From positions 62,001 through 126,000 of the IMG/VR virus record IMGVR_UViG_3300033074_002123: a stretch of 64,000 nucleotides of DNA; one strand, given 5' to 3'. Positions 12,201-27,390 of the stretch are shown in pieces; within the stretch, counting starts at the first letter, position 1, and each line of letters begins with the position of its first letter. This stretch comes from an uncultured virus (IMG/VR IMGVR_UViG_3300033074_002123). Lineage: Duplodnaviria > Heunggongvirae > Uroviricota > Caudoviricetes. Under the pieces are notes generated by a model, which was given only the letters and a program-made list of their open reading frames with translations, searched no databases and was not told the DNA's origin. The translations under genes and the position numbers were made by a program.

Positions 12201-12711
12201 TAGCTTGAGATTTACAATCTAACTGAAATTTAAGTGTACCAGCCAAAGTATTTTTTTCACAAATCCCTAGTGTTTTAATTTCTAAAAATTTAGCTTTTGT
12301 TATCCAATCCAAATAATCTCTTGACCCACTTAATAACTCATATTTTCCATGTATCCCTAAAAAAGGATAATCTTCAATATAAATTTCTTGTTTTAATTTA
12401 CCTAAGTGTTTAAAGAGATTAAATTGAATGTGCTCTTCTGTTCCCATAGAAGAATAATAAAAGAGCCCCCCAAATTCAAATAAATAATGAGTAGGCTTAT
12501 ATTTTTTAATAGCTTCAAGCTCATTATTAGATAAAGTTAAATTGAATTTTTTATCAAATAATTTATCTTCTTTTGCTTTAATATGAATAAAGATACCTAC
12601 TTCTTCTACTCTAATAATATTAGGGCCTAAAATACTAATAGGCAACTGATATTTTTCAATCCAAGTTAAAAGAGATTTATCTAAAGTTTTATCAATCGTC
12701 AAGTGTTCCAT
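9208..12711 (-). CDS. dnaE: DNA polymerase III alpha subunit (family C)
   Basis: PHP domain, GRGSAGGSLVSYLLGI, FERFLN, PDIDLDF, YQEQVM, YGFNKSHA, C-terminal OB-like region. Confidence 0.97.
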   Translation of the reverse strand: MEHLTIDKTLDKSLLTWIEKYQLPISILGPNIIRVEEVGIFIHIKAKEDKLFDKKFNLTLSNNELEAIKKYKPTHYLFEFGGLFYYSSMGTEEHIQFNLFKHLGKLKQEIYIEDYPFLGIHGKYELLSGSRDYLDWITKAKFLEIKTLGICEKNTLAGTLKFQLDCKSQAIKSILGATYSIKVKDKLFDCKFYVLNKIGWKNLLALNKKVNVDRKEKYIEEPELVSYGEGLAFIINSEYPLTETKILAFKQIFDLVFYQIDTVEYKNDKKDMDYLLALKHYFNHFSSQLEPILINDAYYLDKEDAYIRKKLKEIGKEGHYNEAESQHFKSLDENFVIFDSLFPDKDKFFDFLDKAISNAALLNHLSQFLIDTVHFNLPNFDKSTLGGEYLQLESNEDLFYYLLEKGFKTKFKGTDKEAEIWYNRLDKEIEIIKKGEFIDYFLILWDIIRYCDENNILVGVGRGSAGGSLVSYLLGIIKLNPLDYGLLFERFLNEGRIGKSLPDIDLDFEGERREDIKRYMESKYGEDYVCSVGTYTTFQIKQALKDLSRNAGVEFSKVNFITTILRDFEDDWKDLFRNAVINGAVKNFLKEHVEIVNDIHLILGQPKSASIHACATLILPKIDSTKEYKDIYSWIPVRKEENVLVSEWEGTELSDAGFLKEDILGLKMLDKFKAILNLIEKTTGDKIDIYNLPLNDEKVLALFRKGYNSDIFHFGSEGLKKMSREIQPNDINELIAMIALIRPGGLQSGANEDYVEIKFGRKKPEYDFGLKEVTKETYGLYIYQEQVMQAVQVLGDFTLAEADDIRKAMGRMKQELLDSYKDQFINSAHRKGCSIDEAEKIWDKLRRFASYGFNKSHAAAYTLMGYIGQWLKVYYPMQFWTIAFQFRKDDDQIPLFLSEMRRINPEIKIASIDINFSKDYFFMDFENKTMYWSLLGIKGLGPVAAASLMEDFNNHGQYFSFEEFYKRMVDNDVKVTKRIVENLIIAGAFDKLEELTSPTERYKLLQQYYDIAIIPKESLKDIVDLAQINKIYYWQLKQKEVSGLSHIDYNLVLEDIALFKGLKTELIDPLHFKKRKNSGKDVILAGVVVDIIERSSKTKGPFAELTINTNEELTIAYLWWQEIFPKYKEMALNALGKVIFISGKITYNDFQLQMVLQTDKYSKLTIL

Positions 12712-13135
12712 TAATCCATTTATTTTTTACACTTTCATAATAAGATGTAGTGACAGGTAAACGACCTAAAAGTAAATTTTCTGGAAATTCATTAGTTAAA
12801 AAGAAAACTACCATATCTTTTTTAGTCTTAAACCCTTTCTTTAAAGCAAATTCAATCCTTTGAATAAAATCTTCTTCAGTAGGTGAATAATTATTAAAAG
12901 AAATTTCTTTTTTTAATTTAGCTAAATCCTCTACAGATAATTTAGAAGTAGTTTCATTTCTCCAATCATAATCAAAGGTTTTTATACCTCTTCTAATAGA
13001 CAGATAAAATTCTTCTACTTCTTCTTTAGGTACACCAAAAAGTTTTCCATAAACTGTCACCATCTCAGAAAGAGACATATAAACACAATCTTTCTTAACT
13101 TGAAGATGGTTCCAATCTATTGTAGTAGTGACCAT
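12692..13135 (-). CDS. Hypothetical protein
   Basis: 147 aa ORF coupled to queC by a TAATG overlap. Confidence 0.65.
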   Translation of the reverse strand: MVTTTIDWNHLQVKKDCVYMSLSEMVTVYGKLFGVPKEEVEEFYLSIRRGIKTFDYDWRNETTSKLSVEDLAKLKKEISFNNYSPTEEDFIQRIEFALKKGFKTKKDMVVFFLTNEFPENLLLGRLPVTTSYYESVKNKWINGTLDD

Positions 13136-13935
13136 TATTTTTTACTATCAAGTATTTCTTTAACAGAAGCTACAATTTCTTCCCAAGGTTTAATATAAGG
13201 AACTGGGTCCTTTATTCCTACTTCAATAAAAGCCTCTACTCTTTCAACACAAGAACCACATTTTCCACAACTTTGACCCAACAAATTGGGATTATAACAA
13301 GTATTAGTATTTCTCAATACAGTCATAAGACTAATATTAAGAATAGCACAATTTTTAATTAAATCTTGTAAAATAGTAATTTTGTTAAGTTTCAAATAAG
13401 GTAAATATAACTTAACTTTTTGACTATCCCAATTTCCACTAGCAAAAGCTGCATAAATTTGATTATAAAATTGTGGAGTACAATCAGGATAAATAGCATG
13501 GTCTCCTGAATGAACTCCTAAACTTAACTTAACAGAATTAGTAATATGAAACTTATTAGCTAAAGATAAAGCATAACCATATAAAATAGAAGAAAATATA
13601 GCATTTCTATTAGGGACTACTGTTTGTTTCATATTTTCTTCTTGATAATGACCTTCTGGGATAGCTTCTCCTCCCTTTAATAAATTAGAATGAAATAGGT
13701 CAGCTATAAAAGATAAATCTAATTTCTTAAAAAAGAATTGACCATTGGTAGGGAGATGGGCTGCTAACATATCCAAATTTTTACTTAATCTAACTAATTC
13801 AACATTATGCTTCTGACCATAATCAAAACTAACAGCATAAGTCTTATAACCTTTAGTTAATAAGTGAATAAAAAGAGAAGTAGAATCTAATCCACCAGAT
13901 AAACTAAGTACAGCAAATTTTTGTTCAGTAGACAT
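13135..13935 (-). CDS. queC: 7-cyano-7-deazaguanine (preQ0) synthase
   Basis: SLSGGLDS PP-loop, FDYGQKH, VPNRN, YPDC, TCY...CGKCGSC zinc site. Confidence 0.97.
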   Translation of the reverse strand: MSTEQKFAVLSLSGGLDSTSLFIHLLTKGYKTYAVSFDYGQKHNVELVRLSKNLDMLAAHLPTNGQFFFKKLDLSFIADLFHSNLLKGGEAIPEGHYQEENMKQTVVPNRNAIFSSILYGYALSLANKFHITNSVKLSLGVHSGDHAIYPDCTPQFYNQIYAAFASGNWDSQKVKLYLPYLKLNKITILQDLIKNCAILNISLMTVLRNTNTCYNPNLLGQSCGKCGSCVERVEAFIEVGIKDPVPYIKPWEEIVASVKEILDSKK

Positions 13936-13937
13936 AT

Positions 13938-14534
13938 CTATTTATTTTTAAGTTCAACTAATTTACTTTGACAAACTATAGAAAAATCAGTTAATCTTTC
14001 AGCCACAGTCCCTTTCAAAGTAATAAAAGGAACCTTAAACATATCAGTCAAATACCAATAAATAATTTCATCTATCTTTTGTCTATATTCAGCATTTTCA
14101 CTTCTTACTCCATCCCCAACCAACTCAATATCAGAAGCAGGAAAATAAAAAATTAAGTCATATTTTTTTATATAACGTAAAGTAAGAAAAATTTGCTGAG
14201 AAAGAATAAATTTTTCATTCTCAGCAAAATTTCCATTGTGATAAGCCCAATGAGTATAAGAAAGAGCATCTATTAATCCCCTATCTGTAACAAAATCTTC
14301 TACTAAAAGTAAATTTTTAACAATCTCATTAAAAATAAGGATTTGAGAATCAAAATTAGTTTTTTCATTAATGGCTACATTTTGTCTATTAAATCCTCTG
14401 ACTAATTCAGTAAGAAAAGAATGGTTTTTAAGAAAGTTCAAATCTTTATCCCCCATACTTTCAGAGTGTCCTTTTATAGCCTCTAATAAAGTAGATTTCC
14501 CTGTAGATTGAGTGCCAGTAAAACAAATTTTCAT
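13938..14534 (-). CDS. P-loop nucleoside/nucleotide kinase-like protein
   Basis: GTQSTGKST Walker A, DRGLID motif, DGVR lid. Confidence 0.8.
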   Translation of the reverse strand: MKICFTGTQSTGKSTLLEAIKGHSESMGDKDLNFLKNHSFLTELVRGFNRQNVAINEKTNFDSQILIFNEIVKNLLLVEDFVTDRGLIDALSYTHWAYHNGNFAENEKFILSQQIFLTLRYIKKYDLIFYFPASDIELVGDGVRSENAEYRQKIDEIIYWYLTDMFKVPFITLKGTVAERLTDFSIVCQSKLVELKNK

Positions 14535-15808
14535 AAAGTAAATTTTTCAGTTGCAATTAAACCAGAAACTGCACTAGGTACTATTCCTCTAGTCCCCACA
14601 CAACTATCTCCTACCCAAGTAACATTAGGAAATTGACCACTTTTCAAAGTAAAATCTTCTTTAACATCTAAAACTCCCAAACTTACCTTCACTTCAGGGA
14701 ACCAAATCATGTAGTTATTATCTAATTCTAAAATTTTATTCAATTCATCAACAAAAGTATTAAAAGTTTCCCTTAAAGGAGTAGGGAAAGGATTTTTTCC
14801 ACATAAAACTTTAGGAATACTTTTATCTAAAGGAATATTTTCTCCAGTTAACTTTAAACTAGAAAAGAAATGATAGTTATTACCAAAATAAACACTATTT
14901 TTAGCTAAATCTAAATATTTTTGTTGTTCTAATTCTAAATTATCAACATAAAAGCTAGCTAAAACTCCAAAATTAGACAAATTGTTAGTCATTTGGGGTG
15001 TTTGTTCAGAATAACCATGGCCATTATATTGGACCCTCCCATCAACATATTCTTGTACTACATAAGCTCTTTTATTGTTAGCACAAAAAGTCCTCATTTC
15101 AATAGGACCATATTGTTTAACAAACTTAAAATCATGTTGAATAGCAGCAATTTCTTCAATTTTTGGAGTTAAGATAGTTTCAAATCTCCCTCCTATATGA
15201 AGTTTATTAGGCAAAAGATTAAAATTATATAAAGTAGAAAGTTTTTTAACAGTATTAGCACCAGCTTTACCTAACCCTATTTGAAGATAATCATAATCAA
15301 GTTTCTCACCTGTTTCTGTAACTAAAAAATTGTTTTCTAAATCAAAATGAACAACTTTAGTATTAAACTTAAATTTAACCCCATATTGAGAAAGGTAGTT
15401 ATAAATAGCTATACCTAAACCTTTATTATTATCAGACCCAATATGAACAATATGAGATTGTCTTAAAGGTAAACCAAAATTAGCTTCTTTATTAATAGGA
15501 AACTCTTTAATATATTCAGGTGAAGGATGAAATGTTTTAAGAATACCTAAAATAAAATCATGATATTTAGTTTTGTCTTTTGGATAAGGTTGAACAATAT
15601 CTGGATAGTTAGAAAAAACATATTTACCATCACTCCAAAAACCTGCCCCCCCAAACCCATATAAAAGGTTATCTTCTTTTCTTGCTTCAGGGTCAGGTCC
15701 TTGGTCAACAACAAGAATATCATCAAGAAAAATGTCACAACTAATCAAACTAAGAGCTGCAAACAAATTACTAGGACCAAAACCAACTAAAATAATTTTT
15801 TTACTCAT
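14531..15808 (-). CDS. FAD-dependent oxidoreductase
   Basis: Rossmann start ILVGFGPSN, GFGGAGFWSDGK, RTFC, NGH, C-terminal VGDS..TRGIV.SA.SG. Confidence 0.85.
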   Translation of the reverse strand: MSKKIILVGFGPSNLFAALSLISCDIFLDDILVVDQGPDPEARKEDNLLYGFGGAGFWSDGKYVFSNYPDIVQPYPKDKTKYHDFILGILKTFHPSPEYIKEFPINKEANFGLPLRQSHIVHIGSDNNKGLGIAIYNYLSQYGVKFKFNTKVVHFDLENNFLVTETGEKLDYDYLQIGLGKAGANTVKKLSTLYNFNLLPNKLHIGGRFETILTPKIEEIAAIQHDFKFVKQYGPIEMRTFCANNKRAYVVQEYVDGRVQYNGHGYSEQTPQMTNNLSNFGVLASFYVDNLELEQQKYLDLAKNSVYFGNNYHFFSSLKLTGENIPLDKSIPKVLCGKNPFPTPLRETFNTFVDELNKILELDNNYMIWFPEVKVSLGVLDVKEDFTLKSGQFPNVTWVGDSCVGTRGIVPSAVSGLIATEKFTL

Positions 15809-16625
15809 TTAATATTTTTCGAAATTTAGCAATGTTAAATAATATTTTTTGAATAAGAATAGAATCCTTATTAAATTGTAAATGCATCATATCATCAAGT
15901 AAAAGATTAGGTTTATCTTGAATAACTTCAAAAGAAATTTCTTTTTCAAAGTAACCTAATTTTACAGGTAAAGAAGTATCAAAAGATTTTATATAAGAAA
16001 AATTCTTATTATTATACCAAACAAATTCTTGAGCTCCTCCTCCCCCTAACAAATGTAAAGGAATATCTGGATTAAAAAAAGGTAAATTAACTAATTTAGT
16101 AATTAAATTATATCTACCTAACATTTGATTAAAAGAAGGATAAGGACTTAAAGCTCCTTTTTGAAAGAAATTATAACCAAAAGAAATAGCTATTTTACCT
16201 AAAGGATAATTTCTATGGAAAAGAGCATAAGATAAATAACAATATTCAAACTCAGATAAAGTATCACCTTGTAAAACAACTATAGGTTTAGCTTTAATTT
16301 TTTCTTTTTTAATTATTTCTACCCACTCATAGAAGCTTTCTAATGTTTTGTTTGAATCACACCAAACATCAGGAACAACAAAATAAGTAGGGTTAAGGTC
16401 TTTAATATATTTGATAAATTTTTCTGTATCAAAAGCTGCTTTAAGTTCAAATAAAGAGTTATCTAAAATAACTTCTCTACCAGCACTTACCATTCTTTTA
16501 AAAAAATCATAATAAGTAGGGTAAGATTCAAATAAATGAACTAAAGCATAATCATAATCATTAAAAGAAATACTAGTCTCCAATAAACAAGGAGGTACTT
16601 CATGGCTTATACTCAAATGTGTCAT
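15801..16625 (-). CDS. dpdA: DpdA/tRNA-guanine-transglycosylase-fold protein (putative DNA base-exchange enzyme)
   Basis: TGT-barrel motif order ILDNS, VVPDV, VVLQG, LHLLG, SFDTS; embedded among que genes. Confidence 0.75.
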   Translation of the reverse strand: MTHLSISHEVPPCLLETSISFNDYDYALVHLFESYPTYYDFFKRMVSAGREVILDNSLFELKAAFDTEKFIKYIKDLNPTYFVVPDVWCDSNKTLESFYEWVEIIKKEKIKAKPIVVLQGDTLSEFEYCYLSYALFHRNYPLGKIAISFGYNFFQKGALSPYPSFNQMLGRYNLITKLVNLPFFNPDIPLHLLGGGGAQEFVWYNNKNFSYIKSFDTSLPVKLGYFEKEISFEVIQDKPNLLLDDMMHLQFNKDSILIQKILFNIAKFRKILNE

Positions 16626-16636
16626 AAATCAAATTT

Positions 16637-17572
16637 TTAGTACATTCTATCAACAGCAAATTTAGCTCCCTTACTTCTATATTTCTTTTCTGTTACAACT
16701 TCAATTGGGTAGTTATATTTAAGTTTAAGCAATTCTAAACTTTCAATATAAGGTGAAAATTCAATAAAACTAATAATATGTTCCCATTTCTTACCCTTCA
16801 AAAAGTGTTCTAATAATTTATGTACTCTCCAAATATCTGGAACACCAGCAGAATATTTAAGAATTAAGGGATGAGACCAAAACTCTTCAGGTACTATCCC
16901 TATATTTGAAACAACAATTTTGTGATAGTCAGGATTGTTAAAATAACTTGAAAAAAGGTCATTTTCTCTAAATTGAAGTTGACCTCCACTATAATAAGGC
17001 CTTGTTTTAGTACAAGGTAATAAAATAGCCTTCTTTTTTATTTTTTTATATTTTTGAACCTCAACATTAAACTCTAAAACATAATCTCTACCATAACTTT
17101 GCCAAGAGTTTTGATAAATAGGGTTAGAATCTTCTGGGAAAGGGTCTTTTTTAATTTTGCTGTGGTCTATTTGATATAAAACATCAGCAAAATGCATTGA
17201 AGCAGAACTAACCATTTCAACAAAATCCCTCAATAAACCTCTTTCCTTAGCCCAAATACACCAATCATTTAACTCATATTGATTAAGCAAAGTTAAAGGA
17301 TTATCTAATTTAGGAAAGATTATAGATTCTAAATCAACTTTAAACCCCAAATAAATAGCTAAAGGAATTTCATTAAAAGGCAAATTAGTTATAGTATATT
17401 CAGAATAATCAGTATCTTTACCTAATTCTTGAAATATCATAAACCAATAAATCCCTAAATTTTTATAGAGATTTTCCCACATACTAGAAATAGCTTTCCC
17501 TGTACCTAGGCTGACTTTACCTGTTTGCCCTCCTTTTATAGGGGCATAATCTATAATCTTTCCTGAAATCAT
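16637..17572 (-). CDS. ArcS-like (archaeosine synthase/DUF5591-type domain) protein
   Basis: LLPCTKTRPYYS resembles the ArcS PC-x3-KPY-x2-S motif, followed by VVSNIGIVPEEF...Y; adjacent to dpdA-like gene. Confidence 0.65.
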   Translation of the reverse strand: MISGKIIDYAPIKGGQTGKVSLGTGKAISSMWENLYKNLGIYWFMIFQELGKDTDYSEYTITNLPFNEIPLAIYLGFKVDLESIIFPKLDNPLTLLNQYELNDWCIWAKERGLLRDFVEMVSSASMHFADVLYQIDHSKIKKDPFPEDSNPIYQNSWQSYGRDYVLEFNVEVQKYKKIKKKAILLPCTKTRPYYSGGQLQFRENDLFSSYFNNPDYHKIVVSNIGIVPEEFWSHPLILKYSAGVPDIWRVHKLLEHFLKGKKWEHIISFIEFSPYIESLELLKLKYNYPIEVVTEKKYRSKGAKFAVDRMY

Positions 17573-17575
17573 AAG

Positions 17576-17932
17576 TTAAAGAGATTTAACAATTTCATTT
17601 ATTTCAGACCACTTAACCTCAAAAAGAACAGCAATCTTGTATTGAGGTAATTTAAGTTTAAATAGCTCAACAACTTTTTCTTTATAAGGGAGACTTCCCT
17701 CATAAATAGCTTTTTGTTCAGCAGTCAACTCAGTAATAAACTGGTCTTTCTTAATAAAAAATTGTTTAGATTTTTCAGAAGAAGTATAATGTTTAGAAGC
17801 CTTAAGCTTAGCTAAAATTTCTTCCGACTTTGGAGTAGCTGAAAAAGTAATGCCTAAATTCTTGGCATAATTTCTCAAATCTTTGTAGGAAAGTTGTTCA
17901 ACTTCTTCCCACTTAAGAATAGATGTTTCCAT
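17576..17932 (-). CDS. Small putative nucleic-acid-binding protein
   Basis: N-terminal LSYKDLRNYAKNLGI (Rho-N/HeH-like) and C-terminal HTH-like QYKIAVLFEVKWSEINEIV; has its own promoter. Confidence 0.55.
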   Translation of the reverse strand: METSILKWEEVEQLSYKDLRNYAKNLGITFSATPKSEEILAKLKASKHYTSSEKSKQFFIKKDQFITELTAEQKAIYEGSLPYKEKVVELFKLKLPQYKIAVLFEVKWSEINEIVKSL

Positions 17933-17971
17933 GTTGTCAATTTTACAATTAAAATATAATTTACATTAATA

Positions 17972-18003
17972 TAAATTTATGAAATTTTGCAAGAAAAAAC
18001 AAA
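17972..18003 (-). promoter_or_regulatory. Bacteroidota-type promoter TTTG-N20-TAAATTTA
   Basis: Intergenic, exact 20-nt spacer, TTCA immediately before the -7 box as in other copies. Confidence 0.75.
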
Positions 18004-18050
18004 TTAAAGAACCTCATAAAAAAAACCAACTAAAACAGCCTTTTGAATAT

Positions 18051-18686
18051 TTACCTGTTATCTCCTGACCCCCCAATCTTACCTTCTTCAGCTCTTTTAG
18101 CTAACTTTTTAACATTGGTATCAAGAATAAAAGATAAATCGAAATTAAACCAAACAACAATAGTAACAAGAGTTACAAAAATAATTTTAAAATGGCCAAA
18201 TATTTTTTCTGTTTTTTCTTCTGAAGGTTCAAAACTAATTTCATTCCCTATACCATTGCCATGTTGAGGCAATTCATCTCTTAATATCTTTTTAGTAGTT
18301 TCTGAAATTTTACAAGCTTCAATTGATAAAACAAATAAAAGTGTTTCAAGTTCTTCAGGTCTTGTTGGGTCAATTTTAAAAACAAAAGTTTCAGGGTCAA
18401 AATTAACTACTTCTTCAAAATCTTTGCCATATTCATCACAAAGACAAGCCAAATACCAAAAAACATCTCCAATTTCTTTAATCAAATCTAGTTCTATTTC
18501 TTCTTTACAAGCAAAAGAAAATATAGAATTATCAAAAATAATCTCTTCTGTTTTTTTATATTTAAGAATTTTTTCAATAACTTCCCCCATTTCCCCACTT
18601 AAACCTAAGGTAGGATAACTATAACAATGATTAGGAGGGTAAATTTTGGTATGAATAGCTGCTTTTTGATAATCAGATAAGTTCAT
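18051..18686 (-). CDS. mazG: MazG-like nucleotide pyrophosphohydrolase
   Basis: LGLSGEMGEVIE and KEIGDVFWY ExxE...ExxD motifs; C-terminal NVKKL..R...GSGDNR. Confidence 0.88.
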   Translation of the reverse strand: MNLSDYQKAAIHTKIYPPNHCYSYPTLGLSGEMGEVIEKILKYKKTEEIIFDNSIFSFACKEEIELDLIKEIGDVFWYLACLCDEYGKDFEEVVNFDPETFVFKIDPTRPEELETLLFVLSIEACKISETTKKILRDELPQHGNGIGNEISFEPSEEKTEKIFGHFKIIFVTLVTIVVWFNFDLSFILDTNVKKLAKRAEEGKIGGSGDNR

Positions 18687-18698
18687 AAGATTTAATTT

Positions 18699-19667
18699 TT
18701 AATAAGTGTTAGAGATACAATATAAACCACCCCCAAGTTGATAAAGTTTAGATAAAACATCATCTTCCCAAGGAATCAAATTAACATATTCAGGGGTTAC
18801 TTCTCTTATTTTTTCAAAAGCTAACCAACTTGAAGAAGAAAAAATAGGAAAAATGACATTATTTCCTACTATAATAAAATCTAAAATGTTTCCTGTATAA
18901 TCTTCCTGCCCACTATAAAGCAGTTTTTTCCCAGAAAGTTCATTAGGTAAACCAACTATTTCTAATCCAATATCATATTTTATTTTATACAAAATATCAT
19001 AAAGATTTTCATCTACTTTATTATTAAAAATACTATAAAGATAGTACTCATCATAATAATGTCTTAAGAAAATATCAGTATGACCTAAAACAGATCTAGA
19101 TTTAAGTTGATAAACTAATTTAACCCCAAAAATTTCCTTTAATAAAGAAATAATTTTATCTTCACTATATTTTGGGTTATCGGTAAAAATTTTATCAGTA
19201 ACAATAATAAATTTATTAGAGTAAAATTCAAAATTCCCTCCATCCAACTTCAAAGGAACTTTATAAACAGGTAATTTTAACTTTTCTTGATAAATGGTTT
19301 TTCCACATAAAGAATCATTTACTGAAGCTGTATAATGAAATTGAACTCCAATTTGTTTATATTTAGCTGTTTTAGCTAAAAAAGGTATCCAATCCCCTGC
19401 CCAAATATCTGTTACTTTAGGATAAAAGAAGAATTTTTGTTTACGTCTTTTAGCAAAATTTTCTAAAATTTCAGTCCTATATTCTTCTTTTTTAATTATC
19501 CAAAAAATTTCAATATCTAAAGGAATAATATAACTATAAGCTTTATAAAAAGCAAGTAAATCCTCAATATATTGTTTTTTGTATTGTAAACCTTTTGGAT
19601 AAACTAAAAAAATCCCACTAGAAAGAAAATCTTCAGAATAAATTTTAATTGGTAAAGGGACAACCAT
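18699..19667 (-). CDS. Agmatine-deiminase-like (pentein fold) protein
   Basis: DIWAGD, LDGGNF, GHTD, GGGLYC catalytic-motif order. Confidence 0.8.
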   Translation of the reverse strand: MVVPLPIKIYSEDFLSSGIFLVYPKGLQYKKQYIEDLLAFYKAYSYIIPLDIEIFWIIKKEEYRTEILENFAKRRKQKFFFYPKVTDIWAGDWIPFLAKTAKYKQIGVQFHYTASVNDSLCGKTIYQEKLKLPVYKVPLKLDGGNFEFYSNKFIIVTDKIFTDNPKYSEDKIISLLKEIFGVKLVYQLKSRSVLGHTDIFLRHYYDEYYLYSIFNNKVDENLYDILYKIKYDIGLEIVGLPNELSGKKLLYSGQEDYTGNILDFIIVGNNVIFPIFSSSSWLAFEKIREVTPEYVNLIPWEDDVLSKLYQLGGGLYCISNTY

Positions 19668-19670
19668 AAA

Positions 19671-20396
19671 TTAAGCAACAATTTTTACAATAGGATCAAT
19701 ACCAGCTTTAACTACTCTTCCAACTTTTTCACAAAACTCAAATTCAAAATCATCACTTAAAGGCAAAACAAAGCTAACTTGACTTCCATACCTAATTTGC
19801 CCTAAGTCTTTATTCTGAATAACATAATCACCTTCTTCAGGGTAATGAACAATATTGCTAACTTCATAATCAGCAATATTAATTAAGTAATATTCATGAC
19901 CAAAAAGCTTAGGCATTCTAACAGTTATAACTGCTCTTTCATTAGTAAAAGCAAAACCATATTTGTTTAAATCAATAATTCCTTCAATTAAATCATTTTC
20001 AGCAAACAACATAGGTCTGTTATTACTTGTAATAGGACCAACTTTATCACAACTTACAATACCACTATAAGGTAATTTGGTATAGTGAATATTATAATAA
20101 GTTAAAAAGATATCAACAATCATATAATAATTGCCTTCTCCCTTAAACCAAGGGTCCATAAAAGCATCCTTCAAATTATATTTCATTCCTTTAATTTCCA
20201 TTAAAGGTTCATCTGCCTTAACAATAGCTTGATTAATGATAACACCATCAGCTGGACTGTAAAAAACATCATCATCAATATAACGAGGTCTTAATTCATT
20301 TCTAAAAAAGACCATTTCAGCTATTTCCCTTTTGGAATATTTAGCCTTAATAGGCTGAACTTCCTTTTCTATCCATTCTTGAAGAGATAAAGACAT
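19671..20396 (-). CDS. Phosphatidylserine-decarboxylase-fold pyruvoyl-dependent decarboxylase
   Basis: FFRN..R, SPADG, IFLTYYNIH, NER, YGSQ autocleavage site; no obvious membrane anchor. Confidence 0.82.
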   Translation of the reverse strand: MSLSLQEWIEKEVQPIKAKYSKREIAEMVFFRNELRPRYIDDDVFYSPADGVIINQAIVKADEPLMEIKGMKYNLKDAFMDPWFKGEGNYYMIVDIFLTYYNIHYTKLPYSGIVSCDKVGPITSNNRPMLFAENDLIEGIIDLNKYGFAFTNERAVITVRMPKLFGHEYYLINIADYEVSNIVHYPEEGDYVIQNKDLGQIRYGSQVSFVLPLSDDFEFEFCEKVGRVVKAGIDPIVKIVA

Positions 20397-20408
20397 ATAA
20401 TTTCCTCC

Positions 20409-21377
20409 TTAAACCATATCAAGTTTGAAACTAAAATGATTCAAATTCATAACTAAACAAGACATATCAGCTCCTCCTTTATAAAATTCACTGATATTAA
20501 CAAAAACAGGTTCTAAATCTAAATGGATACAAATATCCTCTAATAATCTATTCTTTCCCATTTCAATTTCCCAAGATTCACTACCTGGTTCTTCTTCCTG
20601 AATACAAGATTCAGCAATTAAACTATCATAGTATCTAACAACACTACAACCACCATATTCAGCATACTTTAGAGGTATTTCAATTAAATTAATATAGCCT
20701 TCTAAAGTCTTTATGTCTTCTTTAGAAAAACTAGAAAGACAACACAAAGCATCTTCTCTAGTTACAGGTAAAAAATTAACATCTAAGTGATAAAGATAAT
20801 TGTTAGTAGGACTAACTTTAATAATTTTAATCCCAAATTTTTCTTCCATCCACTCATATGTTTTGATATCACTTCTTTGTCCATATCCACCAACATAAAG
20901 TTTAGGACCTATTTTTTTCAATTCAGCATCTCCTTCAAACTTAAAAGGAGCAACATGGGTTTCAAAACCCAAATTCTCAAAAAACCTTTTTCCTACTTCA
21001 GTTTCTCCTTGCCTATTAGGTACAGTAAAGTTAGAAACAACTACAATATCTTTATCAAAATCATCAAGAACCACTCCTAAATTAGAAGTAAAAACTAAAT
21101 CTTGTAAATATTTTTGTGGAGTAGGGGCTAAATAAACTAAACCCTGAGAAGCAAAAAAGTTATAAAGGGTTAGCCATTGATTCAGAGCTCTTCCCCTATC
21201 AACTTCTCTTTCAGCTTCAGTTTGTTTTTCCATTGATAAATTATTGGGAATTTTGGCATCAAACCCAATTGGGGGAGACATAACTATAGCTGGTAAATCC
21301 AAGTCTTTAATCAAATACCTGTCTTCTACCAAGGGATTGGATTCATTTTGAGTTGTAAGTAGATTAACCTTTTTCAT
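20409..21377 (-). CDS. Amidinotransferase/dimethylargininase-fold (pentein) protein
   Basis: DLVFTSN, R.GE, FEGDAE, YHLD, EF.KGG...SCL catalytic His/Asp/Cys pattern. Confidence 0.85.
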   Translation of the reverse strand: MKKVNLLTTQNESNPLVEDRYLIKDLDLPAIVMSPPIGFDAKIPNNLSMEKQTEAEREVDRGRALNQWLTLYNFFASQGLVYLAPTPQKYLQDLVFTSNLGVVLDDFDKDIVVVSNFTVPNRQGETEVGKRFFENLGFETHVAPFKFEGDAELKKIGPKLYVGGYGQRSDIKTYEWMEEKFGIKIIKVSPTNNYLYHLDVNFLPVTREDALCCLSSFSKEDIKTLEGYINLIEIPLKYAEYGGCSVVRYYDSLIAESCIQEEEPGSESWEIEMGKNRLLEDICIHLDLEPVFVNISEFYKGGADMSCLVMNLNHFSFKLDMV

Positions 21378-21401
21378 TTTATAATTAAATTTTAAGTTAG
21401 T

Positions 21402-22442
21402 TTACCAGTTTAATATATAAGCAAACATTAAAGGAGCTACAATAGTAGCATCTGATTCAATAATAAATTTAGGTGAATGTCCACCTAATTTTCCCCAGGT
21501 AATTTTTTCATTTGGAACTGCTCCTGAATAAGAACCATAACTTGTAGTAGAATCAGAAATTTGACAAAAATACCCCCACATTGGAACTTCAGTAAATTTG
21601 CCTCCACTATAAGGGACTAAATCTTGATTAATACAAGGAACAGAACAAATTGTAAAGTCTCCAGCTATGCCACCCCCTATTTGAAAGAACCCTATTTCAG
21701 CAAAATCTTTTGTTTGAGAAGTATACCATTTAAGTAATTCTTCCATATATTCAATCCCACCTTTAACAACATAATTAGCAAAATCTCCATTAACTTTACA
21801 AGAAGCATAAATATTACCTAAAGTAGAATCTTCCCATCCTGGAACAAAAATAGGAATACCTTTTTCTTTAGCAGCTACAAGCCAACTATTTTCTAAAGGT
21901 ATTTCATATTCTTCATTAGGAATAATTTTTTCATCTAACAATTGGTAAAGAAATTCATGAGGAAAGAACTTTTGGTTATTGTCACTTGCCTTTTTCCATA
22001 AATCAAGTAAAGCTCTAGAAATCTTAGTCATAGCTTCTTCTTCAGGTATACAAGTATCTGTTACTCTATTTCTTCCAGCCTTAGCTAAAGCTACCTCATC
22101 AGCTACTGATAAAGCTCTCCAATCTTTAATTCTGTAGTAATGAGAATGAGCCACTAAATTAAAAATGTCTTCTTCCAAATTAGCTCCAGTACAAGTAATA
22201 GCATGAACTTTATCTTGCCTAATCATCTCAGCTAAACTTATACCCAATTCAGCAGTAGACATAGCACCAGCTAAGGTTATTAATATTTTATTATTTTCTG
22301 TCTCAATAAATTGCTTATAAGCTTCAGCAGCTTCAACTAAAGTTGCAGCATTAAAGTGAAGAAAATGAGTCACCAAAAAATTACTAATTGGTCTACCTTC
22401 AACTATCTTAGTTGAGGGACCTTTGTAAGTAGATTTATTCAT
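21402..22442 (-). CDS. Deoxyhypusine-synthase-like (homospermidine-synthesis) NAD-dependent aminobutyltransferase
   Basis: LAGAMST, TGANLEED, PGWEDST, IGGG, GSYSGAVPNEKITWGK (catalytic Lys), SDATIVAP. Confidence 0.93.
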   Translation of the reverse strand: MNKSTYKGPSTKIVEGRPISNFLVTHFLHFNAATLVEAAEAYKQFIETENNKILITLAGAMSTAELGISLAEMIRQDKVHAITCTGANLEEDIFNLVAHSHYYRIKDWRALSVADEVALAKAGRNRVTDTCIPEEEAMTKISRALLDLWKKASDNNQKFFPHEFLYQLLDEKIIPNEEYEIPLENSWLVAAKEKGIPIFVPGWEDSTLGNIYASCKVNGDFANYVVKGGIEYMEELLKWYTSQTKDFAEIGFFQIGGGIAGDFTICSVPCINQDLVPYSGGKFTEVPMWGYFCQISDSTTSYGSYSGAVPNEKITWGKLGGHSPKFIIESDATIVAPLMFAYILNW

Positions 22443-23505
22443 TTTTATTTAATTTAGATAACAAAGTATATTCAGACAACAATTGTAAAATCCTAGCTCC
22501 TACATTACCATCCCACTCTTCTTCACTTCCAACTTCAACTAAGTCAAAACCAATTATATTAAAATTAATACTTAACTGGTTAAGAATAAATTGAGTTTTA
22601 CCAAAATTAATCCCACCAGGAACAGGAGTACCTGTACCAGGACATAAAGAAGGGTCTAAAACATCTATATCAAAAGTAATATAAATATTTTTAATCCCTC
22701 TTTCTTTAAAAATATAAATAGTTTCACCCAACTTAGAATTAAAGTCTCCTTGTTCAGTAAATAAATCATCATATTCTGGGTGAGTATAAAGGTAAGTTGG
22801 AATTAAAGTGGTATGATTTTGAATAAAATCAGATTCTGCTTTATCATAATCCCTAGCTCCTATTTGAAAATAAGCTCCTATTTTGTTTGAAATAACTTCA
22901 GACTTAAAAACATTATACATAATTGAAGCATGAGAATAATCAAATTTTAAGTAAGCTTCTCTAGCATCAAAATGAGCATCAAAATGAATTAAACCAAAAG
23001 TTTCTTTCTGAAATTTAGCATGAGCTCTTAAAGCTCCAAAAATAACTGAATGGTCTCCTCCAATGATTCCAACTACTTTACCTTTTTCTAAATATGAAGT
23101 AACTACATTTTCTACCTCCATATTTATTTCAGAACACCTCTTGTTTAAGTCAAATAAAACTTTTTGGAACTTAGGTAATAAAGGTTTGTCTGGATTATCA
23201 TAAGACCAAGTTAAATAATGGTCTATTAAAGCTCTCCATCTTTCATTTTCTTCAGCTAACTCAGGTAAATTAGGTAAATCTTCTATCATAAAAACTTTGC
23301 CATCTTTAGTAACACTTTTTCCATGAACAGTTTCAAAAAACCCAAAATCTACTTGTTCAGCCATATCAAAAATGTTTTCAGGTCCCATATAGGTACCTGG
23401 TTCTCCAGATACTGTTGTATCCCAAGTTACAGGAATTAAAATAATTTCAGCAACTTCTTCAGAAGTTTTAGTAACTCCAAAAATATTATAATCTAATTTC
23501 TCCAT
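22435..23505 (-). CDS. speB: Agmatinase (ureohydrolase family)
   Basis: GGDHS, DAHFD, SHAS, DIDVLDP..PGTGTP.PGG, DLVEV. Confidence 0.92.
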   Translation of the reverse strand: MEKLDYNIFGVTKTSEEVAEIILIPVTWDTTVSGEPGTYMGPENIFDMAEQVDFGFFETVHGKSVTKDGKVFMIEDLPNLPELAEENERWRALIDHYLTWSYDNPDKPLLPKFQKVLFDLNKRCSEINMEVENVVTSYLEKGKVVGIIGGDHSVIFGALRAHAKFQKETFGLIHFDAHFDAREAYLKFDYSHASIMYNVFKSEVISNKIGAYFQIGARDYDKAESDFIQNHTTLIPTYLYTHPEYDDLFTEQGDFNSKLGETIYIFKERGIKNIYITFDIDVLDPSLCPGTGTPVPGGINFGKTQFILNQLSINFNIIGFDLVEVGSEEEWDGNVGARILQLLSEYTLLSKLNKNE

Positions 23506-23506
23506 T

Positions 23507-24109
23507 TTATTGATGATTTACTGTTTTTATATAATCAAAAAATTCTAATCTAGCTAAATTCTCATTTTCCAAAAAAGCCCCACTAAGCTCAGCTGTTTGA
23601 GTCATAGTATTTTGGTTTACTCCTCTCATGAAAATACAAAGGTGTTTAGCTTTAATTACAACAGCTACCCCTCTATTATCTCCAATTAAAGCACTTACAT
23701 AATCATGAATTTCCTTAGTTAAGTTTTCTTGTACTTGAGGTCTACGAGCAAAATAGTTGACCATTCTATTTAATTTAGAAAGACCAACTATTTTCTTCCC
23801 TTTTAAGGGAATATAAGCAACATGTGCTACACCAAAAAATGGCATGTGGTGATGAGCACACATTGATTTTACCTCTATATTACCTTGAAAAACTAATCCA
23901 TCATAGTTACCTGTATTTTCAAAAACAGTTACTTTAGGAGCAGGCAAATGAAGTCCTTGAAACAATTCTTGAAGAAACATTTTAGCTACTCTTTTGGGAG
24001 TATCAACACTATTGGCATCTTCTTTCCATCCTGGACAAACAACATCCATAAACTCAGCATACTTAGTTTCTGCTGCACTTAAAATTAAATCAAAATCCGT
24101 CTTTATCAT
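23507..24109 (-). CDS. folE: GTP cyclohydrolase I
   Basis: TPKRVAKM, SMCAHH, GLSKL.R, RPQVQE.LT, HLC..MRG. Confidence 0.97.
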   Translation of the reverse strand: MIKTDFDLILSAAETKYAEFMDVVCPGWKEDANSVDTPKRVAKMFLQELFQGLHLPAPKVTVFENTGNYDGLVFQGNIEVKSMCAHHHMPFFGVAHVAYIPLKGKKIVGLSKLNRMVNYFARRPQVQENLTKEIHDYVSALIGDNRGVAVVIKAKHLCIFMRGVNQNTMTQTAELSGAFLENENLARLEFFDYIKTVNHQ

Positions 24110-24113
24110 AAGC

Positions 24114-24145
24114 TAAAATTATGAAAATGGTTAATTAAAAACAAA
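24114..24145 (-). promoter_or_regulatory. Bacteroidota-type promoter TTTG-N20-TAATTTTA upstream of folE
   Basis: Exact 20-nt spacer; the -7 box ends 4 nt before the folE ATG. Confidence 0.72.
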
Positions 24146-24163
24146 TCTTTTTTTAAAAAGAGT

Positions 24164-24925
24164 TTAAGCTTCTCTCTTGTTACCATAAGCTATAATATGG
24201 ACCCGGTCTGAAAAGTTATAACCTTCCCTTATACATAACTCAATTAACCAAGGTCTTCTTTTCTGTAATTGTTCTGGTGTAACCCCTTCAGGCATTAACC
24301 AAATCATTTCATTTCTTATCCCCAAAAGAGCTTGAACATTTTTAACTTCTTGAAGTTGTTCTTCTCTAGTAACTACAAATTTTAATTGAGCAGGATAATT
24401 AGAAAGGGTTTGAGACATATTATAATAGTTAGTTCTACTTTTCTCATGTTTTTCCCTATCTTTTTCAGTAACTAATCTATTTACAATGCCATCTGTTAAT
24501 TGAGTACCTACAACAGGAATTGAATTAGTTAATTTGGGACTCATTGAAACTAATCCAATATGAAAACCTTTAGGTATAAGATTAGAACCATTAGTTTCAA
24601 TTGTAATAAATTGATTAAAAAACTTAGCTAATTTACAAACTTCTCTTAATAAAGGCATATTAGTAGTAGGTTCTCCTCCAGTAATCATAGTATATCTTAT
24701 TTGAGGATTGGCCTTAAAAATTGCTTCTACATCAGCCAAAGAATATTTACCTTGTTCAGGTTTCCAACTAGCATAAGCTGTATCACAAATCCAATCACTA
24801 AATTGACAATTCATATTACAACCAGAGAATCTAATAAGGATATGGGGGACACCCATTAATTTACCTTCTCCTTGGACACAAACATGCAAATCAATAATTG
24901 AGACTATTTCTGTTGTTGTTTTCAT
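24164..24925 (-). CDS. queE: 7-carboxy-7-deazaguanine synthase (radical SAM)
   Basis: VQGEG, IRFSGC...C...CDT, ITGGEP, IETNG, SMSPK, LKFV, LMPEG, R.H. Confidence 0.95.
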   Translation of the reverse strand: MKTTTEIVSIIDLHVCVQGEGKLMGVPHILIRFSGCNMNCQFSDWICDTAYASWKPEQGKYSLADVEAIFKANPQIRYTMITGGEPTTNMPLLREVCKLAKFFNQFITIETNGSNLIPKGFHIGLVSMSPKLTNSIPVVGTQLTDGIVNRLVTEKDREKHEKSRTNYYNMSQTLSNYPAQLKFVVTREEQLQEVKNVQALLGIRNEMIWLMPEGVTPEQLQKRRPWLIELCIREGYNFSDRVHIIAYGNKREA

Positions 24926-25557
24926 AAAATTTGTTGTTCAGGTTTATTATAAATAAATTTAACTTTACTTTTTATTTTATCCCACATAAAATAATCTTTC
25001 CATTCTTTTTTTACCCCTTCACTAAAAATAATGTGGTTAATTGCTTTTTCTGCTGCTGAAGATTCAATTCCACATTGACAACTTTTCATTATTAATTTAT
25101 TCAAAACATATAAATCATCACTAGATGCTTCAGCATAACCAGTATCTGTTTCATGTACTCTGACAGCAGTTAAATGAATTTCATCTTCACCATTATTAAA
25201 TTCAGTATTATCAAGTATTTCATCAATAATAGCATAAAATAAAATAGATAAAGCTTCAGCACTTACATTAACAGGTAATTCTACCCATCTTAAACTGTTT
25301 TCTTTAACAAACTTCTTAAAATCTTCAGATTCTAAAGTCCAAAAAGCCCAACTGTGGTCAAAAGAATCAATAAATTCTTTAATTTGATTTTTCAAAACAC
25401 CAAAATCTAAAACCATATGAGCCTTATCTAAAGAAATAGAAGAAAGAAATATTTCTACAACATAACTATGCCCATGAATAGAATATTTACATCTGTCAGA
25501 ATAACAATTTCTAACTACATGAGCACCTTCAAATTTAAAAAGTTTTCTAATTATCAT
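24922..25557 (-). CDS. queD: 6-carboxy-5,6,7,8-tetrahydropterin synthase
   Basis: FEGAH...C...IHGHSY, VLDFG.LK, FDH, SAE, VHET. Confidence 0.93.
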   Translation of the reverse strand: MIIRKLFKFEGAHVVRNCYSDRCKYSIHGHSYVVEIFLSSISLDKAHMVLDFGVLKNQIKEFIDSFDHSWAFWTLESEDFKKFVKENSLRWVELPVNVSAEALSILFYAIIDEILDNTEFNNGEDEIHLTAVRVHETDTGYAEASSDDLYVLNKLIMKSCQCGIESSAAEKAINHIIFSEGVKKEWKDYFMWDKIKSKVKFIYNKPEQQIL

Positions 25558-25568
25558 AGTTTTAATTT

Positions 25569-26075
25569 TTATAAGATTCTAGTAATTTTGTTAATAGGAT
25601 AAGAAAGAGGAGTAGAACTTTTTCCTTGAATTAAAACACTAATTTTCTCATTTATAAAATCTACATCTTTAATAGTACCAATTAAGATTTTATTCCCCTC
25701 AAGAATTTTAACTTCACACCCCCTAGCATAATAATATCTCTTATCCAAATATTTTTGTTTTTCAGCTTCTTCTTCATTATCAGGTCTATACCAAATATTA
25801 GGAAAACCTTCAATTGGATAAAGCTCATTATATTTTTCTAACTTAACTTCTTTACTATCAAATATAGTAGGAAGGTGATTCTTAGCAGCTATATCAACAA
25901 TCTTTTCTTTCTTTAATTCCATCACCCCATTCCAATAGTCTTTATCTACCATTGAAGGATAAATTTTTTTCCTAAACTCTGCAATCAAATACTCAATTTG
26001 AAGCTGATTTAAGTAATTAAACATACTTAAATGTCTTGTTTTTTCGTGTTGTGATTTTTTATCTGTTGCTTCCAT
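25569..26075 (-). CDS. Hypothetical protein
   Basis: 168 aa ORF; beta-rich C-terminus. Confidence 0.65.
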   Translation of the reverse strand: MEATDKKSQHEKTRHLSMFNYLNQLQIEYLIAEFRKKIYPSMVDKDYWNGVMELKKEKIVDIAAKNHLPTIFDSKEVKLEKYNELYPIEGFPNIWYRPDNEEEAEKQKYLDKRYYYARGCEVKILEGNKILIGTIKDVDFINEKISVLIQGKSSTPLSYPINKITRIL

Positions 26076-27096: not shown

Positions 27097-27389
27097 TTTG
27101 GGTCAAATTTAGAATAAATTTCTTTTAAAGTAGTAATATACATTTTATAATATTCTTGTAAATCAACAACTCTTTTCTTACCAAATGTCTTAGAATGAAT
27201 AATGGCTGCAATAACCCCTCTAAAACTACTATGAAAACTAATAGGAGGGTCTTTATAACCTTTCCCAATGTCCTTTAACAAAGTAAATTGATTTTCTTCT
27301 ACCCTAATATAGAAAGGATGAAGTAAAGGGTCTTTTATCAAATAACTATTTTCAATAACTTTTTTCTCTTTTGAGTTTACAGTTTCCAT
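27087..27389 (-). CDS. Hypothetical protein
   Basis: 100 aa ORF between helicase and primase. Confidence 0.6.
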   Translation of the reverse strand: METVNSKEKKVIENSYLIKDPLLHPFYIRVEENQFTLLKDIGKGYKDPPISFHSSFRGVIAAIIHSKTFGKKRVVDLQEYYKMYITTLKEIYSKFDPKCL

Positions 27390-27390
27390 A

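Follow-up and report, generated by a model that had tools for sequence, protein, structure and literature searches.

The enzymes FolE, QueD, QueE, and QueC constitute the established pathway from GTP to preQ0. DNA guanine transglycosylases of the DpdA3 subfamily have been tied to complete guanine replacement in phages CP220, phiST, and immuto_2-6A, and Vibrio phage nt-1 forms 2'-deoxyarchaeosine (dG+) in its DNA with DpdA2 and ArcS2 (PMC10516641). In bacteria, an agmatine-dependent homospermidine pathway has been described in which diverse SpeY enzymes couple two agmatines to free N1,N9-bis(guanidino)homospermidine and adjacent, SpeY-associated SpeB homologs finish the conversion to homospermidine, with gene clusters that combine an arginine decarboxylase (ADC), SpeB, and SpeY (Li et al. 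2026, PMC13625781). Polyamine routes of viruses include the ADC-AIH-NCPAH-HSS set of PBCV-1 and the HSS of phage phiRSL1, and a 2023 survey of viral polyamine genes found SpeY in neither viruses nor phages, AIH only in chloroviruses, and agmatinase in one phage (PMC9992855). Here we analyze a 15-gene block of an uncultured phage that holds genes of both kinds, located in a window of 64,000 nucleotides (bases 62001-126000 of the 130,392-bp virus record IMGVR_UViG_3300033074_002123; coordinates without a locus name refer to this window). An earlier sequence-only reading had proposed that the polyamine-type enzymes of this block feed the base modification and thereby give a polyamine-bearing DNA base. 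We favor, with moderate confidence, that the block instead brings together independent modules in one variable slot of the replication region, a deazaguanine DNA system beside free polyamine synthesis, rather than the pathway to one new base. Free polyamine synthesis is suggested because SpeY is strongly conserved and because a gene pair for an ArgZ-like hydrolase and a PSD-family decarboxylase occurs independently in other phages; dG+ is the most likely end product of the deazaguanine side, being what the sole assayed phage ArcS2 makes.

The block consists of 15 head-to-tail open reading frames (ORFs) on the minus strand, from 25557 down to 13135:

24922..25557, minus strand: QueD-like 6-carboxytetrahydropterin synthase of 211 aa with a C-terminal extension (Pfam PTPS 3.7e-21; PHROG QueD-like 5.2e-18)
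24164..24925, minus strand: QueE, radical SAM 7-carboxy-7-deazaguanine synthase (radical SAM 9.6e-8; PHROG QueE-like 2.6e-41, full length)
23507..24109, minus strand: FolE, GTP cyclohydrolase I (Pfam 6.3e-50; NCBIfam FolE 2.1e-50, under the equivalog cut-off)
22435..23505, minus strand: agmatinase-family ureohydrolase, SpeB-like (Pfam Arginase 1.5e-48)
21402..22442, minus strand: SpeY, bacterial-type deoxyhypusine synthase homolog (Pfam DS 1.6e-43)
20409..21377, minus strand: ArgZ-like guanidino-group hydrolase, GME1, called "amidinotransferase" in Campylobacter phages (phrog_12759 6.6e-37; no Pfam match)
19671..20396, minus strand: soluble PSD-family pyruvoyl decarboxylase (Pfam PS_Dcarbxylase 5.6e-20)
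18699..19667, minus strand: agmatine-deiminase-like enzyme, GME2 (Pfam PAD_porph 3e-12, full length)
18051..18686, minus strand: MazG-like nucleotide pyrophosphohydrolase of 211 aa (Pfam MazG 4.6e-7; PHROG MazG-like 1e-21)
17576..17932, minus strand: orf118, 118 aa (no significant family)
16637..17572, minus strand: ArcS2-like protein, an N-terminal part of about 160 aa without match plus a DUF5591 core (Pfam PF17884 5e-6, residues 168-287)
15801..16625, minus strand: predicted DNA guanine transglycosylase of the DpdA3 subfamily (tblastn to CP220 and immuto proteins; no Pfam match)
14531..15808, minus strand: 425-aa flavoprotein of HI0933/FAD-depend_C type (phrog_12409 2.2e-31)
13938..14534, minus strand: P-loop kinase-like protein, AAA_28 (Pfam 8.4e-16; PHROG thymidylate kinase 2.5e-20)
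13135..13935, minus strand: QueC, 7-cyano-7-deazaguanine synthase (Pfam 1.1e-42; NCBIfam QueC 1.3e-36, under the cut-off)

Searches of Pfam, PHROGs, and PDB and by tblastn gave significant family matches for 13 of the 15 ORFs and none for the other 2. They bear out the block and every gene name given to it before, including the preQ0 pathway, DpdA, and a protein with the ArcS core. The genes are tightly packed: FolE lies 1 nt from the agmatinase-like gene, as the ORF coordinates confirm, overlaps include 8 nt for agmatinase-like/SpeY and for flavoprotein/DpdA3 and 4 nt for flavoprotein/kinase, and only two gaps exceed 30 nt (118 nt between MazG and orf118, 54 nt between QueE and FolE). The shared orientation of the block genes is uninformative because 157 of the 160 ORFs of at least 60 aa in the genome lie on the minus strand. 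Equally uninformative were scans for promoters (79 promoter-like sites versus 90.5 expected from shuffles) and terminators (5 terminator-like sites versus 5.4 expected).

The block is a conserved core (QueD, QueE, FolE, MazG, DpdA3, P-loop kinase, and QueC) interrupted by three insertions: five putative arginine/polyamine genes between FolE and MazG (SpeB-like, SpeY, ArgZ-like, PSD-fold, and agmatine-deiminase-like), orf118 with the ArcS2-like gene ahead of DpdA3, and the flavoprotein gene between DpdA3 and the kinase gene. The slot that holds the block is bounded as follows:

25569..28752, minus strand: upstream flank with orf168, primase, orf100, and DnaB-like helicase (Pfam and PHROGs; syntenic with SJC03, L067, L070, and L231)
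9208..13135, minus strand: downstream flank with orf147 and DNA polymerase III alpha (Pfam DNA_pol3_alpha 3.3e-61)

The polymerase III alpha of this phage is 35-44% identical to those of Bacteroides phage SJC03 and of the loci L067, L070, and L231, and the slot from primase/orf168 to polymerase III alpha carries differing cargo in these relatives. At L067 (47% identity for DpdA3, 44% for PolIIIalpha) the order is DnaB-primase-orf168-QueD-QueE-FolE-phosphoribosyltransferase-MazG-DpdA3-QueC-PolIIIalpha and at L070 it is QueD-QueE-FolE-MazG-dUTPase-DpdA3-kinase-QueF-QueC-ThyX-PolIIIalpha; polyamine genes are absent from both slots. Conversely, L231 and SJC03 have the ArgZ-like/PSD pair in the same primase-PolIIIalpha slot without que genes. 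SJC03 lacks QueC and DpdA3, Fletchervirus CP8 lacks QueC, and tblastn with DpdA3 gave no match to CP8-type records. In L067, the nearest syntenic relative, two further genes separate orf168 from QueD (RRXRR/HNH and IS605 OrfB/TnpB-like, L067 4162-6319), and therefore the slot also takes in mobile elements.

The same separation of the two gene sets is seen on a larger scale. DpdA3 has 222 relatives in IMG/VR, and we searched the best 80 of these loci with flanks of up to 10 kb on each side (tblastn, E <= 1e-4). QueE is found within 10 kb in 54 of them, QueC in 49, FolE in 48, and the kinase in 45, and none of the 80 has an agmatinase-like, SpeY, ArgZ-like, PSD-like, deiminase-like, ArcS2-like, or flavoprotein gene, in counts where many loci are short contigs with flanks of at most 10 kb and where tblastn with one query may overlook ArcS2 of further clades and polyamine enzymes without homology. 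Likewise, none of the 54 IMG/VR loci encoding SpeY has homologs of que genes, DpdA3, or ArcS2, and none of the 49 ArgZ-like loci has que, DpdA3, ArcS2, or SpeY genes. The proposal that the polyamine genes feed base modification is thus not borne out by any of these three sets of loci. On a single IMG/VR contig of 76,264 bp (L095 and L241), a DpdA3/QueE/QueC cluster and an ArgZ-like/PSD pair lie about 50 kb apart.

The polyamine-to-base link is further weakened by SpeY itself, which is 57-67% identical to bacterial enzymes acting on free agmatine. All 8000 candidates scored in its homolog search had E <= 0.001; the best 120 listed show 60-67% identity, with one relative at 89%, and SpeY is 57-63% identical to its counterparts in all 80 bacterial loci that were fetched. 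In 15 aligned sequences, residues N311, E312, K313, I314, T315, W316, and K318 of the NEKITWGK motif are invariant and G317 is nearly so; its lysine we take, from the deoxyhypusine synthase literature, to be the catalytic one. All NCBIfam equivalog scores of SpeY are under the cut-offs. Directly upstream of SpeY, the SpeB-like protein is a candidate bis(guanidino)homospermidine ureohydrolase. Its GGDHS, HFDAHFD, and DIDVLDP motifs, presumably the Mn ligands, align with the same segments of the solved agmatinases 3lhl and 7lol, and its full-length bacterial homologs (36-41% identity) are mostly from Bacteroidota, with one relative at 76%. This relative and the 89% relative of SpeY are each on a 5,469-bp contig from the same sources. 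The nearest SpeB-like homologs, together with relatives infecting Bacteroides and Flavobacterium, make a Bacteroidota host our guess for the phage. Taken together, the polyamine-type genes (SpeY, SpeB-like, PSD-like, ArgZ-like, and deiminase-like) look catalytically intact by their conserved motifs.

This arrangement resembles the bacterial agmatine-dependent homospermidine pathway (PMC13625781), where SpeY can have an agmatinase homolog directly upstream (Bacteroidota loci) and a decarboxylase nearby; we found the agmatinase homolog immediately upstream of SpeY at the four bacterial loci L154, L170, L175, and L201. Unlike the bacterial pathway, the genes here are phage-encoded and come with two extra guanidino hydrolases, and the candidate decarboxylase has a PSD fold that is not among the SpeY-linked ADC folds listed in PMC13625781, in which the words phage and virus do not occur. 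With PBCV-1 and phiRSL1 the phage would share a virus-borne, multi-step route to homospermidine, but they use HSS and this phage SpeY. A phage-borne SpeY/SpeB pathway or an interleaving of que and polyamine genes was not found in the literature searched, nor was a paper combining deazaguanine, phage, and agmatinase. In a single-protein scan of IMG/VR and by tblastn against GenBank phages, SpeY had no match; another search gave the 54 IMG/VR loci mentioned above. Among these, an agmatinase-like gene is present in 2 and another protein in common with this genome in 3. The PHROG matches in 42 flanking proteins of 6 such loci are mixed, and some of the 54 may not be viral; locus L013, with a sigma factor and a Lon-type protease, looks cellular.

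The second line of evidence comes from the ArgZ-like and PSD-like proteins. The former is closest to the cyanobacterial arginine dihydrolases ArgZ/AgrE, its nearest solved structures being the arginine dihydrolases Alr4995 and Sll1336 (6lrf and 6jv0; 8.9e-19 to 5.7e-14 over residues 30-212). It is no equivalog of the NCBIfam arginine dihydrolase (2.6e-22, 79 bits versus a cut-off of 450), and its C-terminal S306-C307 is invariant in 3 of 3 sequences. The PSD-like protein is a candidate arginine or ornithine decarboxylase. Its D50, H104, G204, and S205 are the same in all seven phage homologs aligned, and with Asp, His, and Gly-Ser kept, the residues needed for pyruvoyl formation are present. 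Its local motif is YGSQ, and all NCBIfam PSD equivalog scores are far under their cut-offs. The canonical PSD motifs are GGST or LGST, and one PF02666 member, Ao-ADC1 of Aspergillus oryzae (PDB 9JER), is a proven arginine decarboxylase (PMC12904898).

The PSD-like gene adjoins the ArgZ-like gene in 40 of the 49 IMG/VR loci (L231-L279), and of the nine others, three lie at contig ends and six are on records as large as those of Fletchervirus. By this distribution the ArgZ-like/PSD pair is a stand-alone two-gene module, widespread in phages. Pairs of other phages share with the one here the same order, tight spacing, and the conserved Asp-His-Ser/Gly-Ser residues of self-cleavage; this pair differs in its setting, a deazaguanine cluster with SpeY, SpeB-like, and AIH-like enzymes alongside. 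A literature search found no assay of either member of the pair. In SJC03 (L001 13963-15445) and in L231 (13293-14759), the pair is followed by dCTP-deaminase-like and IMPDH/GMP-reductase-like genes just upstream of polymerase III alpha. Fletchervirus CP8 and CPX carry homologs of the ArgZ-like protein, the PSD-like protein, and the 425-aa flavoprotein (L002 8937-9920, L227 5001-5768, and L228 4998-6266), which are scattered among replication genes (helicase/clamp, helicases/GroES, and dUTPase/clamp loader).

The DNA of Fletchervirus has deoxyinosine in place of deoxyguanosine. One could therefore imagine that the ArgZ-like protein, the PSD-like protein, and the flavoprotein form a third, as yet undescribed route of nucleotide or DNA modification tied to guanine replacement. 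All three homologs occur in 38-39 Campylobacter phage records, of which the listed ones of about 130 kb are all Fletchervirus-type, and both the place of the trio among replication genes and the nucleotide-metabolism genes next to the pair in SJC03 and L231 would fit. We regard this explanation as very unlikely, given that, by what is known of the families, pyruvoyl decarboxylases require an alpha-amino acid in free form and the guanidino groups on which ArgZ-type enzymes act are of the arginine type. In T4-like contigs, moreover, the pair is found between the Gp23 major capsid gene and PhoH, a typical place of auxiliary metabolic genes, and tblastn of the flavoprotein had no match in Bacteroides phages. 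The flavoprotein is grouped by the ESM Atlas with viral "NAD(FAD)-utilizing dehydrogenase" clusters and shares 29% identity with the Fletchervirus proteins; a literature search on the PSD, amidinotransferase, and dehydrogenase genes of Fletchervirus gave nothing useful.

The fifth gene of the polyamine insertion encodes the agmatine-deiminase-like protein, which has weak PDB matches (1.1e-8 to 6b10/6b2w and 0.0044 to the agmatine deiminase 3hvm), no NCBIfam match, and one weak tblastn match only among GenBank phages. Its C-terminus is GGGLYCISNTY, of which GGGLYCIS may be the catalytic motif. With three different guanidino-hydrolyzing enzymes in one block and N-carbamoylputrescine amidohydrolase absent from the genome, arginine and agmatine might simply be turned over for host takeover rather than for polyamine supply, by using up arginine, liberating ammonia or urea, or clearing agmatine, in a slot that merely tolerates insertions. 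The unrelated cargo of this slot in relatives (phosphoribosyltransferase, dUTPase, ThyX, HNH gene, and IS605 OrfB) is compatible with such a scenario. It nevertheless seems quite improbable to us: SpeY and an overlapping SpeB homolog are a biosynthetic pair in bacteria, a decarboxylase beside a guanidino hydrolase yields an amine product, and the ArgZ-like/PSD pair is conserved across many phages.

On the deazaguanine side, tblastn aligns 99% of the DpdA3 protein with a protein of CP220 at 37.5% identity (1e-29) and matches it at 35.2% identity to a "DNA guanine transglycosylase" of Flavobacterium phage immuto_2-6A (3e-35); both of these proteins have been named DpdA3, and DpdA3 proteins reportedly showed no activity in E. 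coli (PMC10516641). A three-way alignment of the block protein with these two has 68 invariant columns. The block protein has no match to the Pfam TGT family (best DUF6610, E 0.14), and a profile search of PDB sequences was without match. By megablast of the whole block against GenBank phages, the only match was a 47-nt stretch in DpdA3 (16519-16565) that is 96% identical to the DpdA3 gene of seven Campylobacter Firehammervirus-type records.

As in the known DpdA3 phages (CP220, immuto, and phiST), the DpdA3 homolog (35-37%) comes with the preQ0 pathway, has a P-loop kinase and a nucleotide phosphohydrolase as neighbors, and lies beside a variable tailoring gene. This tailoring gene is ArcS2-like here, whereas the known systems have QueF and DpdN (immuto), none or QueC* (CP220), or DpdL (phiST). 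In CP220, a homolog of the kinase (28% identity, 5e-14) lies directly downstream of DpdA3, and MazG homologs are at the same position as here in L067 and L070. DpdA3 is accompanied by a nucleotide phosphohydrolase and a P-loop kinase (window 13938-18686, L011 7874-10367, L012 8279-11002, and L067 7634-11021). The phosphohydrolase is of varying type: MazG in this phage, HD/AAA in CP220, and a protein called "hydrolase" in immuto. At L067, a phosphoribosyltransferase and a dATP/dGTP diphosphohydrolase domain come in addition. These companions hint that DpdA3 systems act partly on the nucleotide pool, although a post-replicative route has been proposed (PMC10516641). Between MazG and the ArcS2-like gene, the N-terminus of orf118 has, to our own reading, a helix-extended-helix look, and orf118 shows no similarity to the Rho_N protein at the same position in L070.

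The predicted tailoring enzyme is filed here as ArcS2-like, a putative member of this group by its DUF5591 core (PF17884, 26.9 bits versus a cut-off of 26). Its AlphaFold model (mean predicted local distance difference test score of 73.9) has one significant PDB fold match, AF0587 (2q07; E 6.8e-5, probability 1.00), and its NCBIfam ArcS score of 31.6 bits versus a cut-off of 440 makes it no ArcS equivalog. From the ArcS motif PC-X3-KPY-X2-S-X2-H (PMC10516641) the protein departs (PCTKTRPYYSGGQ, PCTKTRPYYS), keeping PC and PY, with Arg for Lys, Ser one residue early, and His missing. Its clade is small, with 9 homologs in a collection of 5.8 billion proteins (own entry counted), one relative being 54% identical and encoded on a 64,388-bp contig. 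Residues P, C, T, K, R, P, Y, and Y of the motif are invariant in 9 of 9 clade members, and the motif of nt-1 ArcS2 is likewise degenerate though the enzyme is active (PMC10516641). Residues 1-160 (17090-17572) are also conserved in 9 of 9 clade members, e.g., at LRD, YQxD, and QNxWQxYGR, and have no Pfam match and no PDB fold match; this half could be involved in amine choice or DNA binding. Like in nt-1, an ArcS catalytic core adjoins a DNA transglycosylase in a phage, but nt-1 has DpdA2 and this phage DpdA3, and the ArcS2-like protein here has the extra N-terminal domain of about 160 aa as well as the PCTKTRPYYS motif. A DpdA3+ArcS2 pairing was not found in the literature searched, and Supplementary Data S1 of PMC10516641 may list one.

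A single-protein scan of IMG/VR and tblastn against GenBank phages with the ArcS2-like query gave no match, nor did an ArcS2 profile against IMG/VR and against genome contigs. In metagenomes the profile found three loci (L003-L005), of which none has polyamine genes and none shares further genes with the phage. One of them, on a 261-kb bacterial contig (L005 1800-11423), looks like a cellular deazaguanine island with a GmrSD_N-like gene, a glutaminase-type amidotransferase, a pyrimidine-dimer-glycosylase-like gene, QueC, and two DUF5591 paralogs, one of which is 38% identical to the ArcS2-like protein of the phage.

ArcS proteins differ in the amine that they use. Thermococcus kodakarensis ArcS attaches lysine through its epsilon-amine to preQ0, be it in tRNA, as nucleoside, or as 5'-monophosphate, giving an adduct that blocks reverse base exchange and needs the radical SAM enzyme RaSEA to reach G+, whereas Methanocaldococcus jannaschii ArcS uses ammonium, asparagine, or glutamine directly to form G+ (PMC11298593). 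RaSEA is hence not required for G+. Co-expression of DpdA2 and ArcS of nt-1 lowered dPreQ0 from 926-1607 to 0-11 per million nucleotides with a gain of only 4-7 dG+ (Table 3, PMC10516641), and from this imbalance we consider an unseen ArcS2 product possible.

The precedent for linking a polyamine covalently to a base of phage DNA is the alpha-putrescinylthymine of phiW-14, a phage that modifies thymine through a hydroxymethyl-pyrophosphoryl route. For the block described here, the corresponding idea is that the ArcS2-like enzyme adds an amine made by the polyamine cassette (agmatine, putrescine, homospermidine, or bis(guanidino)homospermidine) in place of lysine or ammonium to the preQ0 nitrile in DNA or a nucleotide, giving a cationic N-alkyl-archaeosine, and that the SpeB-like, ArgZ-like, and deiminase-like enzymes may trim guanidino ends after attachment. 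In its favor are the interleaved and tightly spaced genes, their conserved order in a relative of 81-88% identity, the lysine chemistry of T. kodakarensis ArcS with its exchange-blocking adduct, a genome without a RaSEA-type enzyme, the dPreQ0 of nt-1 for which the gain in dG+ fails to account, and the rarity of an ArcS2 clade with its own N-terminal domain. All the same, we judge this idea, though chemically feasible, to be unlikely. The comparative link between the gene sets ends at the closest relative, SpeY is strongly conserved with bacterial enzymes that use free agmatine, and the ArgZ-like/PSD pair is present in the que-less phages SJC03 and CP8 and in T4-like contigs; the ArcS2-like relatives at L003-L005 have no polyamine genes nearby, and the example of M. 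jannaschii indicates that G+ can be reached from ammonium directly. If it were true, the base would be of a new kind, with N-alkyl-archaeosine throughout the genome since DpdA3 would replace every guanine and with an adduct that locks the base against reverse exchange like preQ0-lysine in tRNA, and would have a bearing on restriction evasion and on the reading of such DNA by sequencing.

We therefore return to independent modules as our preferred explanation. It starts from the observed gene identities, intact motifs, synteny, and distributions, and every substrate, product, and timing in the following scheme is a prediction. FolE, QueD, QueE, and QueC would supply preQ0 from GTP, and DpdA3 would swap guanine in DNA for a 7-deazaguanine, probably completely by analogy with the three measured DpdA3 phages. 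The ArcS2-like enzyme would then turn the nitrile into an amidine so that the final base is predicted to be dG+ or a close derivative, with MazG and the P-loop kinase probably handling the nucleotide pool and the flavoprotein as an extra. Separately, the ArgZ-like hydrolase and the PSD-fold decarboxylase would most likely convert arginine to agmatine or putrescine, SpeY would join two agmatines to bis(guanidino)homospermidine, and the SpeB-like ureohydrolase would free homospermidine from it, with the agmatine-deiminase-like enzyme as a putative additional guanidino-removing step. The polyamines would stay free cations for phage DNA replication and packaging, unattached to a base. The combination of DpdA3 with an ArcS-type tailoring enzyme predicts a phage with all guanines replaced by an archaeosine-type base, and makes this genome a natural test case for which amine phage ArcS2 uses and for whether an altered DNA charge in phages goes along with altered counter-ions.

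Several points weigh against this explanation. In run X2, an activated sludge sample of another study, three contigs of 81-88% nucleotide identity are colinear with the block (QueC-kinase-flavoprotein, DpdA3-ArcS2-orf118-MazG-deiminase-like, and PSD-ArgZ-like-SpeY-agmatinase-FolE). Single X2 contigs thus hold FolE-SpeB-SpeY-GME1-PSD and GME2-MazG-orf118-ArcS2-DpdA3, so that the gene sets are interleaved and not merely adjacent. Furthermore, a primary amine is what ArcS enzymes join to the preQ0 nitrile, the genome is without a RaSEA-type trimming enzyme, and the mass balance of nt-1 suggests that not all ArcS2 products may be known. For free polyamine synthesis, three enzymes that remove guanidino groups seem more than is needed, and a search of the genome found no N-carbamoylputrescine amidohydrolase to finish a deiminase route. 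The ArcS2 clade is also set apart by its degenerate motif and unmatched N-terminal domain, and the activities behind our scheme are all predicted. Regarding X2, common descent predicts a shared order at 81-88% identity. A lack of linkage between polyamine genes and dpdA/arcS in relatives, which the earlier reading had named as evidence against a polyamine-bearing base, is what we see in all distant relatives, and this one close relative departs from it.

Among runs X1-X6, near-identical DNA to positions 12000-27000 of the window was found in wastewater-type runs of several studies. A joint that skips 19032-26465 in runs X1 and X3 was set aside as unreliable with one side backed by 21 letters only, and the high contig depth over SpeY in X2 and X3 is taken to come from conserved SpeY genes of other organisms.

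A search of the whole genome found no QueF, phosphoribosyltransferase, or CN_hydrolase, which extends the earlier observation of a missing QueF from the window to the complete genome, and QueE was the single match to radical SAM PF04055, so that a second radical SAM gene is absent. The phage genome is complete (CheckV 100%), carries direct terminal repeats, and has a GC content of 0.30. Besides DNA polymerase III alpha, DnaB, and primase, it encodes capsid protein, portal, terminase, and baseplate proteins as well as UvsX, SbcCD, ThyA, and ribonucleotide reductase. The PHROGs matched by its ThyA-like gene (14-946) are those of ordinary thymidylate synthases.

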